Part shown: piece by piece, positions 38,565-58,882 of the stretch
Position numbering within the stretch: the stretch's first letter is position 1
Layout: the number at the start of each line of letters is the position of its first letter
Source of the DNA: Sedimentisphaerales bacterium
GTDB taxonomy: Bacteria > Planctomycetota > Phycisphaerae > Sedimentisphaerales > Anaerobacaceae
Reading direction: 5' to 3'
Assembly: GCA_035529475.1 (NCBI GenBank)
Contig: DATKWR010000836.1
Location: 1-61,999, forward strand
DNA: 61,999 nt
Program-made: the position numbers and the translations under genes
The notes under the pieces: model-generated
The model's database searches: none
Seen by the model: the letters and a program-made list of their open reading frames with translations, nothing else
What the model was told of the DNA's origin: nothing

Positions 38565-38846
38565 ATGCTAAACGGCAAACCGAACTGGTCGAACATCCGG
38601 GCTGCGCTGTACATCGTTGTCTTGATCGCGGCCATGGCCACGGGATGGGCAACATTGAGAGCTGATGTATCTGCGAATACCAGAGACATTGAGGAGGGCA
38701 ATGAGGAAAGAAAAGACGTTATCCTGTTACTCACGGAAGTGCAGGTGCAGATAAGGGGATTGGAGGTGGGCCAGGGAAACATGCAAAGTCAACTTGCGAT
38801 TATACAAAGGGAGTTGGGCGATTTGCGGCAGAGACTATCCGAATGA
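38565..38846 (+). CDS. single-TM protein with a coiled coil
   Basis: 93 aa with the TM segment IRAALYIVVLIAAMATGWATL followed by a heptad-like helix. Confidence 0.55.
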   Translation: MLNGKPNWSNIRAALYIVVLIAAMATGWATLRADVSANTRDIEEGNEERKDVILLLTEVQVQIRGLEVGQGNMQSQLAIIQRELGDLRQRLSE

Positions 38847-39682
38847 GCGTAGTCCTAAAACGCGAGATCTCCTACACGAGCCGCCGGGACATGTTCAGGC
38901 TGGTGTTCCTGTCGGATATACACCTCGGATCAAAGCACTGCGATGAACGGCTGTTAAGGGAGACGGTCGAATCCATCAAGCGCAGCAAGAACGCCTTTTG
39001 GATCGGACTTGGGGACTATTGTGAATGGATCAACGTGAGGGATCCCCGCTACCAGGAATCGGAGACGGCCAGTTGGCTTTGGGGCGTCGACGACAAGGCG
39101 GAGGAACAGAAGAGGCGGATCCAAAGCAGATTAGAGCCGATAGCGGACAAATGCGTCGGCCTGATTGAGGGGAACCATGAGTTCGCCATCAAGAAACACA
39201 CGGAGAGGGATGTCTTTCGGGGACTCGTGGAGGGTTTCATCAAGACCCGGCGCGAAAAGGGCATCACGGAGCCGTTGGGTCTGGGGCCGGACGGATTCAT
39301 CCGATTGATCTTCAGGCGCAGCGAAAAAGGCGCAACCTGGACGTGCGACGTGTACGCCACGCACGGAGCCGCCGGAGGCAGGAAGGCCGGGGCCAAGGCG
39401 CTAAGGCTTCAGGATTTGCACAGGACGCACGAGGCGCATATAATAGTGATGGGTCACAGTCACGAGCCCCTGGTGCTGCCCGCGGAGATTCGGCTGAGGG
39501 CGGGCAGAGGACCGAACGCACTAGCGAGCGTCACGCACTCGGTGAACGCGGGCTGTTTCCTGGGCACCGAGGGGGCGGGGTGGCCGGAATACGCCCGACG
39601 CAGGGACTATCCCCCGTCATTGGCGAGCGTGGTCGAGGCATGGATAGAACCCGACAAAGAGCGGGTGAGGATCATAGCGTAA
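38843..39682 (+). CDS. calcineurin-like metallophosphoesterase
   Basis: 279 aa with motifs LSDIHLG, GLGDY, GNHE, THGAAGG and GHSHE in canonical order. Confidence 0.85.
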   Translation: MSVVLKREISYTSRRDMFRLVFLSDIHLGSKHCDERLLRETVESIKRSKNAFWIGLGDYCEWINVRDPRYQESETASWLWGVDDKAEEQKRRIQSRLEPIADKCVGLIEGNHEFAIKKHTERDVFRGLVEGFIKTRREKGITEPLGLGPDGFIRLIFRRSEKGATWTCDVYATHGAAGGRKAGAKALRLQDLHRTHEAHIIVMGHSHEPLVLPAEIRLRAGRGPNALASVTHSVNAGCFLGTEGAGWPEYARRRDYPPSLASVVEAWIEPDKERVRIIA

Positions 39683-39814
39683 AGGAGAATCGGAATGACT
39701 CTACAGGAAGCGTTGCAATGGGTGCTCATCGGCAGCGGGGCTGGCTAGCCTACGCCATCATTGGCTGGATTCCGGCCCTGAAGAACCTGAAGGATGACTA
39801 TCCCATTGGAGTAG

Positions 39815-40276
39815 ATGGATGATCAAGGGAAGATAATCACGATGGAAGATGCTATGGATGTAGCCAGATATTTCCTTGCAATCGTTTGTGAAGAAGAGGG
39901 TGATTTTATCACTAACCTCAAGCTTCAAAAGCTACTCTATTATGCCCAGGGATTCCATTTGGCAATCCTAGGAAGTCGGCTCTTTGATGAAGAAATCTAC
40001 AGGTGGATGCATGGGCCAGTAGTCCCCGAAATCTACCGCGCATTCAAGGAATATGGGGCTGGGCCAATTGCTTGTCCAAAGGAAGCATTGTCTCAATTGC
40101 CAGACGAAACAAGGCAAGTCCTGGATGAGGTTTTTGCTGTCTATGGTCAATTCACTGCCTGGACTCTGCGAAACATGACACATACTGAGCCTCCATATTG
40201 TGAGGCGCGAGCAGACGGCATAATCTCGACGAAGGGAATGGAGAAGTTCTTCAAGACCCGACTCATTGAGCAATGA
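39815..40276 (+). CDS. DUF4065 / Panacea (SocA/GepA-like) domain protein
   Basis: 153 aa. VARYFL..ITNLKLQKLLYYAQGFHLAILGSRLFDEEIYRWMHGPVVPEIY is a close match to the DUF4065 core pattern. Confidence 0.75.
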   Translation: MDDQGKIITMEDAMDVARYFLAIVCEEEGDFITNLKLQKLLYYAQGFHLAILGSRLFDEEIYRWMHGPVVPEIYRAFKEYGAGPIACPKEALSQLPDETRQVLDEVFAVYGQFTAWTLRNMTHTEPPYCEARADGIISTKGMEKFFKTRLIEQ

Positions 40277-40797
40277 CGTCTCGCAAGAACCGAATCAAAC
40301 GGCGCAAGGTATCAGATATGGAGGAACTTCCTATGAACGAAAGAGAGAAGATGATTCTTGTTGAGCTTCAAACGCAACATGAAGAAGCCCTCAGGGCTTG
40401 GGATAGCCTTGACAACAAGTTGGTCTCCATCTTTATTGCCGCGGGCTTCATTTTCGCCTTGTTCGTCGCCCTCAAGCCCGCAACTGGCTTGTGGGGTTGG
40501 GTTCAGTTCGCAGCCTATCTTATTATGCTAGCCTTGACCCTGGTTGGTTTGTGGCCACGAACCACTCGGTCGCCTATCCGACTTGACTGGGAAACGATCT
40601 GGAAAGAATACTTGTCTGAAAGCGATGAGAATGCTTATAAGCAACTGGTGAGCGATTATCTGTACGCGCTTTCGGCGAATAACCGACTCGGCCACTTCAA
40701 ATCTCGGGTGCTGATGGTTTCAATGATTTTATTGACCATCCAGGTTTCGGCAGTGCTCATCACTCTAGCGGTTGCGTTAGCTGCAAAAGCATGGTAG
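40273..40797 (+). CDS. 3-TM membrane protein translationally coupled to the Panacea-like gene, a candidate membrane toxin/effector
   Basis: 174 aa with an ATGA overlap. The TM segments are VSIFIAAGFIFALFVAL, VQFAAYLIMLALTLVGLW and MVSMILLTIQVSAVLITLAVALAA. The N-terminus is basic. Confidence 0.55.
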   Translation: MTSRKNRIKRRKVSDMEELPMNEREKMILVELQTQHEEALRAWDSLDNKLVSIFIAAGFIFALFVALKPATGLWGWVQFAAYLIMLALTLVGLWPRTTRSPIRLDWETIWKEYLSESDENAYKQLVSDYLYALSANNRLGHFKSRVLMVSMILLTIQVSAVLITLAVALAAKAW

Positions 40798-41088: not shown

Positions 41089-41137
41089 CAGAAACAGCGC
41101 GAAAGCGCTGACCATACTCCTCCTTTTCACAGGGAAG

Positions 41138-41172
41138 GGCGGCGTCTCACCGGCGCCGCTCTTCTCGTTGTC
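41138..41172 (+). terminator. intrinsic terminator candidate at the end of the late/accessory block
   Basis: A GC-rich stem pairs 41138-41146 with 41152-41160 (core GCGGCG/CGCCGC) around a 5-nt loop, then CTTCTCGTTGTCTGT. A smaller hairpin CAGCGCgaaaGCGCTG lies at 41095-41110. Confidence 0.55.
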
Positions 41173-41191
41173 TGTGATGCGTCACGGAAAT

Positions 41192-41207
41192 GTCAATAAA
41201 AATTGAC
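41192..41207. promoter_or_regulatory. perfect palindrome GTCAAT-AAAA-ATTGAC, candidate operator
   Basis: Read directly. It lies about 35 nt upstream of the -10 element of the XRE gene promoter. Confidence 0.45.
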
Positions 41208-41217
41208 GCATAGGGGC

Positions 41218-41246
41218 TATACAAGTTGGATAATGTATGCTATAAT
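41218..41246 (+). promoter_or_regulatory. sigma70-like promoter with extended -10
   Basis: TATACA, a 17-nt spacer and TGcTATAAT (41241-41246). It lies about 30 nt upstream of ATG 41276. Confidence 0.45.
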
Positions 41247-41275: not shown

Positions 41276-41494
41276 ATGAACTTCGGCAGAGCCGTAAGGA
41301 TAATGCGTACCGCGCGGGGAATGACCCAGGCGGAACTGGCGGAACGCGTCGGCTCCAGCCAGAGGATTATCAGCTTCATCGAGACCGGCCTGGTCAGGGC
41401 GACGGACGAGACGGCAGCCAAGATTCAGAAGGTGCTGGACTTTTCCCCGGCCTCGGATGAGGCGCTAAAGGTACTGGTCAAGGACGCCGACTAG
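41276..41494 (+). CDS. XRE-family (Cro/CI-type) helix-turn-helix regulator
   Basis: 72 aa. RTARGMTQAELAERVGSSQRIISFIETG is a canonical HTH_3 pattern. Confidence 0.85.
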   Translation: MNFGRAVRIMRTARGMTQAELAERVGSSQRIISFIETGLVRATDETAAKIQKVLDFSPASDEALKVLVKDAD

Positions 41495-57448: not shown

Positions 57449-58882
57449 ATGACAGTAGCACGATCCATCCATTTCCAGAACTTGGGCCAGGCTCACGAAC
57501 AGGCCGAAATAATCCGAACATCCGATGTTCCCATCGTGAAAATAGTCAATTCACCAGGGACCAATCCGTTCCCGGGCAAGCGTGTCATCATCCGGGAGAT
57601 GGACCCGAATGAGACAAACATGGTCCGTTCCGGCGTCTCAGGGGCTAGGGTTTGGTGGGAGCACAACGAGGCCCGGATGCGCGAGAGGAGTTGGGCCTGG
57701 GCCTTCGAGGTTGCGGCGAACGAGCAACCCTGCAAGACGCCACAACAGTGTGGGATCCTCGCGGCCTATCAGATCGAGTGGATGCGCCAAGCCAGGCTCC
57801 GGGGCTTTACGCAGAAACTCCTGGCGGGCGTATTCAGCACGGGTGTGCCGGAGCCAGAATACGCGCCCCTCTTTGGGGATATGGTAAAACTGTGTGACTA
57901 TATGGCCTTCCACGAATACTGGGGGAGGGGCGGGCCCGATGATCCCGACTCGTATACCTGGCTCACGCAAAGGTACAGGCGCTTCTATGACGCCCTCGGA
58001 TTCACGAAACCCACCTTCATCACCGAGGCCGGGATATGCCTCGGGGACCCCCTTGGCTGGAAGGACGCGGGGATCACCGCGGAACAGTATGCCATCGAGT
58101 GTATTGCGTACTGCGACGAGTGCCAAGAGGATGGGTATGTGGAGGGCGTGTTCTTCTTCACCGCCGGCGGGGGCGACAAGTGGAAGCGCTTCGAGTTGAC
58201 GCCCCAGCAGACGCAGACCATCGTGGACAGCAACAGGCACCTCGTCAACTTGCCGATTATTAGCTCTGATACCGTAACAACTAGGACACCAGCTTCACCA
58301 GAGATAAAATATCTGCATATTGACTACGGCTTGGGCGCGGTTCCCTTCATCGACGAAGTGCGCCCCCCGATGCTGAATATCGGGAAGAGATGGTATCTTG
58401 CCAATAATCATCCCTCAATTCCCGATCATTATGAGGGACACCCGGAGAGATGCGTCGATATAAACTTAGAGGCTGGGGGGAACAGTGACCTGGGCGAACC
58501 AGTCGTCGCTTCATTCACTGCGGCAGTAGTTGATGCTGTGGACCTGACGGACCGCGCAGGCGGACGGAGTTGGGGTAAGACTGTGCGAATAGTTGGGTTC
58601 TTGGAAGATGGACATTTTGTGTGTTGGCGAGGTTGTCACTTGGATAGCATCGAAGTGGCAAGGGGCCAGATCATCAGGTGTGGGGACAGCATAGGGACAA
58701 TCGGTCATTCGGGGACACAGTATGCTCATTTGCATTTCGATATATCGATAGATAGAATCAATCCTATCGATTGGCACCCGCAGAATCATATGGATGCATT
58801 TGTAGATCCAATTGCTTTCTATCTGAAACATGGGGTCGATACTGCTTTGATGGAACGCCTGGTGAGATGGGATGGGCAATGA
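57449..58882 (+). CDS. two-domain lysin with a TIM-barrel glycoside-hydrolase-like domain and an M23 peptidase-like domain
   Basis: 477 aa. AANEQP and FITEAG resemble the clan GH-A acid/base and nucleophile motifs. The C-terminal GTIGHSGTQYAHLHFDISI is M23 (LytM)-like. Confidence 0.65.
   Translation: MTVARSIHFQNLGQAHEQAEIIRTSDVPIVKIVNSPGTNPFPGKRVIIREMDPNETNMVRSGVSGARVWWEHNEARMRERSWAWAFEVAANEQPCKTPQQCGILAAYQIEWMRQARLRGFTQKLLAGVFSTGVPEPEYAPLFGDMVKLCDYMAFHEYWGRGGPDDPDSYTWLTQRYRRFYDALGFTKPTFITEAGICLGDPLGWKDAGITAEQYAIECIAYCDECQEDGYVEGVFFFTAGGGDKWKRFELTPQQTQTIVDSNRHLVNLPIISSDTVTTRTPASPEIKYLHIDYGLGAVPFIDEVRPPMLNIGKRWYLANNHPSIPDHYEGHPERCVDINLEAGGNSDLGEPVVASFTAAVVDAVDLTDRAGGRSWGKTVRIVGFLEDGHFVCWRGCHLDSIEVARGQIIRCGDSIGTIGHSGTQYAHLHFDISIDRINPIDWHPQNHMDAFVDPIAFYLKHGVDTALMERLVRWDGQ

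Follow-up and report, generated by a model that had tools for sequence, protein, structure and literature searches.

PanA-PanT toxin-antitoxin (TA) systems combine a Panacea-domain antitoxin (PanA) with a toxin (PanT), and the family is distinguished by its exchange of partners: PanA neutralizes three validated membrane-depolarizing toxins, and its partners are swapped freely (PMC8832971). In PanT-D11, PanA contacts a region N-terminal to the transmembrane (TM) segment according to prediction and mutagenesis, and PanA has been proposed to act as a sensor (PMC10440598). Small membrane effectors are also found in the Pycsar and Pucsar systems; PycTM presumably compromises the integrity of the membrane (PMC11224242), and a Pucsar effector with three TM helices forms a hexameric channel of ~15 Å lined by TM2 (bioRxiv 10.64898/2026.08.12.744502). 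In this study, we analyzed a ~62 kb stretch of phage DNA (61,999 nucleotides of contig DATKWR010000836.1, assembly GCA_035529475.1, filed under Sedimentisphaerales bacterium; this whole stretch is hereafter called the window) that carries a PanA gene (open reading frame (ORF) A) followed by a gene for a protein with three TM helices (ORF B; hereafter the 3TM protein). The two genes had been described from the letters of the DNA as a PanA/PanT-like pair (the original prediction). We found that the 3TM gene fills the exact slot held by a soluble partner gene in the clade of this PanA, and we tentatively favor, with a rough probability of 0.4, a swap in this slot that gave rise to a PanA-controlled 3TM membrane effector for exclusion or abortive infection.

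The locus shares with described PanA-PanT pairs (PMC8832971; PMC10440598) a TA-like bicistronic, co-oriented arrangement in which a Panacea gene lies immediately 5' of a gene for a small membrane protein, and a location on a phage; validated PanTs include membrane-depolarizing proteins. It differs in that the partner is of the PycTM / pJV1-SpdB3 3TM type, has its own Shine-Dalgarno (SD) sequence and is probably uncoupled, and in that the pair is not conserved. No PanT of the PycTM, SLATT or DUF5706 type was found in the text or supplements of the Panacea papers, of which one spreadsheet was covered in part, and a literature search on DUF5706/PF18967 returned nothing. The likeness to the TM effectors of Pycsar and Pucsar (PycTM and PucTM) comprises full-length homology at the family level, a size of ~155-175 aa, the presence of three TM helices together with an α-helical cytosolic region, and an occurrence in anti-phage loci. 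By contrast with those systems, no cyclic nucleotide monophosphate (cNMP) cyclase gene is adjacent here or in eight other contexts of 3TM genes, where the gene is a single phage or prophage gene; moreover, the window protein alone falls under the thresholds of the hidden Markov models, and its 154-aa model has neither a β-sheet appendage nor a cyclic-nucleotide-binding domain. No PycC match (PADLOC) was obtained among the window neighbors (metallophosphoesterase, PanA and holin-like gene), the whole window not having been exhaustively scanned, and no cyclase Pfam families were found among the called genes of the eight other contexts. Because there is no cyclase, the locus is not a Pycsar system. 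Prophage genes of the lambda rexAB type mediate membrane exclusion or abortive infection and are expressed with the repressor. Relatives of the 3TM gene similarly lie directly 3' of cI-like repressor genes, beside an integrase gene, and their product is a predicted membrane channel. However, there is no sequence relationship to rexAB, and the window gene belongs to a late operon of a phage in which no integrase-sized ORF was found among the window ORFs scanned.

ORF A is a clear Panacea-domain protein by its sequence, and the DUF4065/SocA core noted earlier is borne out: it aligned with positions 1 to 112 of the 113 of Pfam SocA_Panacea (PF13274; E = 2.1e-21, 77.4 bits at a cutoff of 25.7), with phrog_1281 (1e-46) and, at a score under the model cutoff, with NCBIfam SocA_antitoxin. 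A homology search gave 4740 homologues at E ≤ 1e-10, and the best 119 besides its own protein were 51 to 63% identical. The true start is probably M10 (39842) or M14 (39854), because the N-termini of the relatives align with M10. A sequence-profile search of the PDB gave nothing usable for this clade.

The usual neighbor of PanA in this clade was determined from the 80 nearest loci of each of two sets, bacterial genomes and IMG/VR, with 2.5 kb around each locus. A gene for a soluble partner lies directly 3' of PanA at 55 of the 80 genomic and 75-76 of the 80 viral loci and has its start between -28 and +18 nt relative to the PanA stop, often with an ATGA overlap; orphan PanA genes are rare (~5/80 viral loci). 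This canonical partner is a single family of soluble proteins of ~135-150 aa, typically ~137 aa; it is recognized by two invariant Cys, the motif ...AFRF.G..PMVGYR....FHI.W.D..FTLYDH and a basic tail at the N-terminus that holds a K-x-R-I-K motif. The nearest relative of the window PanA (63% identity, bacterial chromosome) retains it. The pair is also found in two cultured P22-like phages, Salmonella phage vB_SemP_Emek (orf149/orf161) and Escherichia phage E212, as a late-region moron located after the ejection-protein gene and ending at a terminator in Emek and between the transglycosylase and tailspike genes in E212. The partner had no Pfam match and no solved relative in the PDB profile search, and its matches to NCBIfam MAG6450 and PADLOC NsnC are below threshold, hence it is unnamed. 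The canonical cassette is thus very common in phages and prophages, and it is uncharacterized. The window locus agrees with it in PanA clade (46-63% identity), gene order, the ATGA-type junction and a moron-like placement close to where the structural or late region ends; it differs in that none of the six frames of the window encodes the soluble partner and the slot holds the 3TM gene instead.

The two ORFs on the + strand and their ATGA stop/start overlap are present as originally described, the PanA stop overlapping the ATG at 40273 by 4 nt. The ATG at 40333 (M21 of the 174-aa ORF), however, is the most likely functional start of ORF B, because the homologues open at the M21 position and GGAGGA lies 7 nt 5' of it. 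The sequence MNE(K/R)(E/Q)K opens all three close homologues (55-72% identity) at this position, with a GTG codon in two, and gene callers give the 154-aa product. As a candidate for the main product, the 174-aa ORF with the ATGA start was ruled out by the homologue N-termini and the SD.

Nucleotide homology (80%) between the window and the contig of the 72%-identical 3TM homologue (L010) runs from 40314, just 5' of the SD, to 40766. The same ATGGAGGAAC..CC. motif precedes the ATG or GTG start in L010 and in the contigs of the 60%-identical homologue (L007 and L008), and a near-identical ATGGGGGACCCTCCT does so in that of the 55%-identical one (L009). Because the homology starts at 40314 and the SD-start motif is common to the relatives, the 3TM gene is a self-contained mobile cassette that brings along an SD and a start codon and has its boundary at 40314. 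The leftover 5' of this boundary (40273-40313, MTSRKNRIKRRKVS) consists of the clade-typical ATGA overlap followed by a likeness to the basic N-termini of canonical partners, whose starts lie at -3 to ~+16 nt relative to the PanA stop; examples of these N-termini are MAKRKKNRIAKQQVSGG, MSRVKGRIKQRDK and MAKAKRRIKHPRP. The basic N-terminus of ORF B (MTSRKNRIKRRKVSD...), a further element of the original prediction, is present but falls in the 20-codon extension, outside the conserved protein. In the N-terminal tails of canonical partners, [KR]x[KR]I[KR] was found in 15 of 94 (1.3 expected), and the window peptide has this motif; tested against composition-matched shuffles, the peptide gave p ~0.05 by alignment and ~0.09 by motif, which is suggestive only, and 20 open codons are nothing unusual by chance. 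The extension is probably a relic of the replaced partner gene, derived from its 5' end, and the ATGA "coupling" is probably likewise a relic and not a working start. Translational coupling of the two genes, which had been proposed from the overlap, is possible; the overlap itself stands, but the start that is probably in use lies 56 nt past the PanA stop (which ends at 40276), and this speaks against coupling.

Hydropathy places the TM helices of the 154-aa form at residues 29-47, 53-73 and 126-150 and, together with the positive-inside rule, the N-terminal helix and the K/R-rich residues 74-125 on the cytoplasmic side. An AlphaFold2 (AF2) model built on a deep alignment (predicted local distance difference test score 94.7, predicted template modeling score 0.84) has helices at 3-47, 53-73, 86-94 and 98-153. 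Thus, a cytosolic N-terminal helix leads into a TM1-TM2 hairpin, and a helical segment in the cytosol joins this hairpin to TM3, in agreement with the three hydrophobic helices and the soluble segment between the second and third that had been recognized before. A profile built from four sequences (the window 3TM protein and its three close homologues) matched, at E ≤ 1e-3, at least 277 representative clusters, almost all of which are 150-180 aa long and align over the full length, and D27, K29, P75, P81, W86 and K123 are near-invariant in a 65-member alignment. PADLOC PycTM models were matched by 34 of the 65 members, with E down to 1.5e-9; the window protein alone gave E = 0.045 over positions 9-153 of 160. 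It had no match in a local copy of Pfam, a precomputed PF18967 match is on record but marked "weak", and the relatives P0153, P0156 and P0159 carry unmarked PF18967 matches. Because its own family of 277 clusters links this weakly scoring protein to PycTM, we assign ORF B on sequence grounds to the membrane proteins of the PycTM / pJV1-SpdB3 3TM (PF18967) type. An effector of the SLATT or Pycsar type had been suggested; the Pycsar part is supported. PADLOC "2TM Effector" or RT-SLATT models were touched by only 1-3 of the 65 relatives at E ~1e-3. Fold searches with both AF2 models against the PDB and with the better model against BFVD returned generic helical bundles only, none with E < 0.1, and the PDB sequence-profile search gave nothing usable for the 3TM family. 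Searches of IMG/VR and JGI metagenome contigs, and tblastn against GenBank phages, gave no further relatives of the 3TM gene.

Four contigs with identical copies of this phage (L001, L003, L004 and L006) carry the pair, and two further contigs (L002 and L005) end within PanA, so that its 3' end alone remains; these breaks are due to low coverage in soil metagenomes. The contigs that carry the 60%- and 55%-identical homologues are short and lack PanA, and neither PanA nor a cyclase was found in six further 3TM contexts from phage or prophage DNA. Five of the eight PanA-less contexts are prophage lysogeny-control or defence regions, and from these neighborhoods the 3TM family appears to be typically a single gene of prophage immunity regions and defence islands. 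This suggests that the cyclase-less 3TM genes (~156 aa) form an undescribed family of single-gene exclusion or defence factors. In L010, a fragment matching PanA positions 94-127 (E = 3.5e-10) lies 200 nt 5' of the 3TM gene, where an N-terminus like that of a multi-TM membrane protein is fused in frame to the C-terminal fragment of PanA; this fusion reflects either a genuine rearrangement or a chimeric assembly.

We favor a slot swap because the 3TM gene sits in the partner slot while the partner is absent from the window, and because the leftover 5' of the boundary resembles a partner N-terminus; a common module is favored because the two genes share a transcription unit, both stand out in composition within the phage, and a PanA fragment recurs 5' of the 72%-identical 3TM gene. 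The locus would then close the late operon as an accessory module of mosaic origin, descended from a cassette of PanA and the ~137-aa partner, in which the body of the partner gene would have been replaced by the 3TM cassette with ~14 codons of the old basic N-terminus left behind. PanA may bind the cytosolic N-terminal helix of the 3TM protein and thereby block its assembly. Upon loss or titration of PanA, for example through a superinfecting phage or late in infection, the 3TM protein would oligomerize into a channel and depolarize the membrane, and depolarization would result in exclusion or abortive infection. A protein antitoxin would thus stand in place of the cyclase and cyclic-nucleotide signal of Pycsar.

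Several results weigh against this reading. A 3TM-family gene within 2.5 kb was found at none of the 80 genomic and none of the 80 viral nearest PanA loci, and there are eight distinct 3TM contexts without PanA, so the pairing is essentially unique. The expectation that the pair would be conserved in relatives consequently failed for the most part (0/160 PanA loci), the exceptions being the identical phage copies and the fragment in L010; the PanA/PanT-like pair remains plausible by its slot position but not by conservation. An SD and a start codon 56 nt past the PanA stop belong to the 3TM gene itself, and other 3TM genes stand alone beside prophage repressor genes, so an antitoxin is not generally needed. 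The PanA of L010 is fragmentary while the 3TM ORF is intact, on a contig with a coverage of 1.2x. The window PanA, finally, shows no extra divergence at conserved positions as a sign of altered specificity: in a clade alignment of 26 sequences it retains 33 of 33 invariant columns and departs at 7 of 63 strongly conserved positions, and the nearest relative with a canonical partner departs at 10.

The two genes may form a functional pair or be two unrelated accessory genes side by side. In the latter case, the main rival and possible though somewhat doubtful, the orphan PanA would serve in counter-defence against the ~137-aa toxins of host or prophage modules, and the 3TM protein would act by itself in exclusion or defence under another signal. 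The window PanA is intact and typical of the soluble-partner clade, yet the partner is missing from the phage; the canonical pair is common in prophages, as its frequency at the viral loci indicates, so incoming phages would often meet the toxin. DarG-like proteins provide a precedent for orphan antitoxins in phage counter-defence (PMC11825919). Members of the 3TM family standing alone in eight contexts, including those with repressor and integrase (L013-15) or defence-gene neighbors (L011, L017 and L102), and the cassette's own SD and start also agree with independence. On the other hand, orphan PanA genes are rare among the relatives, and if the genes were unrelated, neither the precise placement of the cassette in the toxin slot nor the recurrence of PanA sequence in a second lineage (L010) would be expected. 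An extended form of the slot swap, which we consider unlikely, is that the swap was in frame, so that a 174-aa isoform keeps the ATGA start and the K-x-R-I-K peptide as a PanA-docking handle on a Pycsar-class effector, and that cyclase-less PycTM-like proteins are widespread single-gene exclusion factors of prophages.

Table 1. Features of the window and of related loci. Positions without a contig handle refer to the window.
Feature	Position	Strand	Evidence or remark
ORF of 1835 aa	27424-32931		taken for the tape-measure protein from its length alone
93-aa protein	38565-38846		N-terminal TM helix, then coiled coil; three genes 5' of PanA
Calcineurin-like metallophosphoesterase gene	38843-39682	+	Pfam Metallophos 3.5e-6; phrog_7339 "DNA repair exonuclease" 1.3e-20; two genes 5' of the PycTM-like gene
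Promoter-like site inside the phosphoesterase gene	39415-39444		TTTGCA-18-TATAAT, 10/12 matches
34-codon ORF (MGAHRQRGWLAYAIIGWIPALKNLKDDYPIGVDG)	39718-39822		one hydrophobic stretch; called by gene finders; overlaps the longest PanA ORF
Panacea-domain (PanA/SocA-like) gene, ORF A	39815-40276	+	longest ORF 153 aa
ORF B, longest form, 174 aa	40273-40797	+	ORF list
20-codon in-frame extension (MTSRKNRIKRRKVSDMEELP)	40273-40332	+	5' of the conserved 3TM start
SD GGAGGA	40320-40325	+	7 nt 5' of ATG 40333
3TM protein, 154 aa, PycTM / pJV1-SpdB3 3TM family	40333-40797	+	homologue N-termini, SD, AF2
Holin-like membrane protein, 86 aa	40828-41088	+	phrog_1299 holin, E 2.9e-6; last gene of the rightward late operon
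Intrinsic-terminator-like hairpin	41132-41166	+	15-bp stem, 10 GC pairs
Promoter-like site	41218-41246		TG-extended TATACA-17-TATAAT; 5' of a Cro/cI-type helix-turn-helix (HTH) gene at 41276
477-aa protein	57449-58882		C-terminal metallo-endopeptidase domain (phrog_7767 2e-11; weak endolysin match)
Fusion 5' of the 3TM gene	L010 1-489		multi-TM membrane-protein-like N-terminus, PanA C-terminal fragment
3TM gene after a PDC-M19B homologue	L011 3120-6265		1.4e-54
3TM gene, same protein as in L013-L015	L012		no repressor called upstream; contig ends just downstream
3TM gene between cI-like HTH repressor and integrase genes	L013-L015		
3TM gene among early genes	L016		
3TM gene in a defence-gene setting	L017 2504-7952		repressor, small ORF(s), 3TM, methyltransferase (MTase)-Mrr fusion, PDC-M02A/B, integrase
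3TM gene beside M78 peptidase and sigma-r4 regulators	L100/101 (L100 1744-4022)		
3TM gene in a defence-gene setting	L102/103 (L102 2879-6930)		repressor, small ORF(s), 3TM, MTase-Mrr fusion, integrase
Canonical partner genes	L018-L097, L098, L104-L185		e.g., L185 2950-3372; L184 2889-3374

The window has a GC content of 55.7%, and its credible genes all lie on the + strand; they include genes for the large terminase subunit, a Sipho_Gp37-type tail protein, RecT, a replication initiator, a DnaC-like loader and a DNA methyltransferase (Table 1). Identical pieces of the phage are present in several soil metagenomes, its DNA was traced to six public runs, all low-depth soil metagenomes, and no variants or alternative junctions were found in the contigs of these six runs. 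Among GenBank phages, DNA similarity to the region was confined to the PanA core. Upstream of PanA lie tail genes, the 93-aa protein, the phosphoesterase gene and the 34-codon ORF, which may or may not be a real gene. The PanA and 3TM genes are the third-last and second-last genes of the late transcription unit: the hairpin ends the unit that holds PanA, the 3TM gene and the holin-like gene, and no terminator was found between the PanA and 3TM genes. The hairpin and the promoter-like site 3' of it (41132-41246) form a border between the late operon and the early region with the HTH and RecT genes. The promoter-like site within the phosphoesterase gene could give the PanA and 3TM genes a moron-style expression apart from the late operon. 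The GC content at third codon positions is 0.47 for PanA and 0.58 for the 3TM gene, both below five of six large phage genes taken as reference (0.56-0.79; five at 0.63-0.79 and the methyltransferase gene at 0.56), and the two genes are compositional outliers within the phage. No repeats flank the 3TM cassette, and no tRNAs were found.

This position at the end of the late unit raises the question of lysis timing, in which the 3TM protein would act as a holin, pinholin or antiholin-like channel with the 86-aa holin-like protein and PanA or the 174-aa isoform would be a delaying inhibitor, as in dual-start holin/antiholin pairs. The two genes belong to the last three of the unit with a strong terminator directly 3', the next gene matches a PHROG holin family, as the original prediction had proposed for it, ORF B has two in-frame starts 20 codons apart that differ by a strongly basic tail, and the related Pucsar 3TM effector is a ~15 Å channel. 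Nevertheless, we regard this function as improbable: the 3TM protein had no PHROG match at E ≤ 0.01 and thus none to a PHROG holin family, its relatives occur in lysogeny, immunity or defence regions and not in lysis cassettes, there is no adjacent endolysin gene, and in P22-like phages this late-operon moron site is taken by canonical PanA pairs, which have no link to lysis. The 477-aa protein with the peptidase domain is the only lysin-like candidate seen and lies ~16 kb from the holin-like gene. The 93-aa protein, which had no family match, is spanin- or holin-like in shape.

The calcineurin-like superfamily includes cyclic-nucleotide phosphodiesterases, and a putative tie of the window phosphoesterase to cNMP signaling is conceivable. 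The full-length homology to PycTM, the lack of a cyclase in any context examined and the phosphoesterase gene two genes upstream would fit an anti-Pycsar/Pucsar decoy that soaks up cyclic CMP, cyclic UMP or cyclic GMP, or co-assembles with host PycTM into dead hexamers, with PanA unrelated, but this is very improbable, since it is purely inferential, nucleotide binding included, and most relatives lie in prophage immunity regions or defence islands, which fits defence over counter-defence. What probability remains falls to another function or to none.

If the two genes are merely neighbors, the locus is an ordinary moron cluster. Two leads do not depend on which reading is right. One is the large family of PycTM-like proteins that lack both a cyclase and an annotation and occur in prophage immunity regions and defence islands; the other is the common, uncharacterized cassette of PanA and its ~137-aa partner, which is also found in cultured P22-like phages. 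The apparent in-frame toxin relic is a concrete candidate for the mechanism behind the partner promiscuity of Panacea proteins. If PanA does control the 3TM protein, Panacea TA modules and the membrane effectors of Pycsar and Pucsar would become connected, and a class of effectors gated by cyclic nucleotides would have been rewired to a protein antitoxin or sensor.

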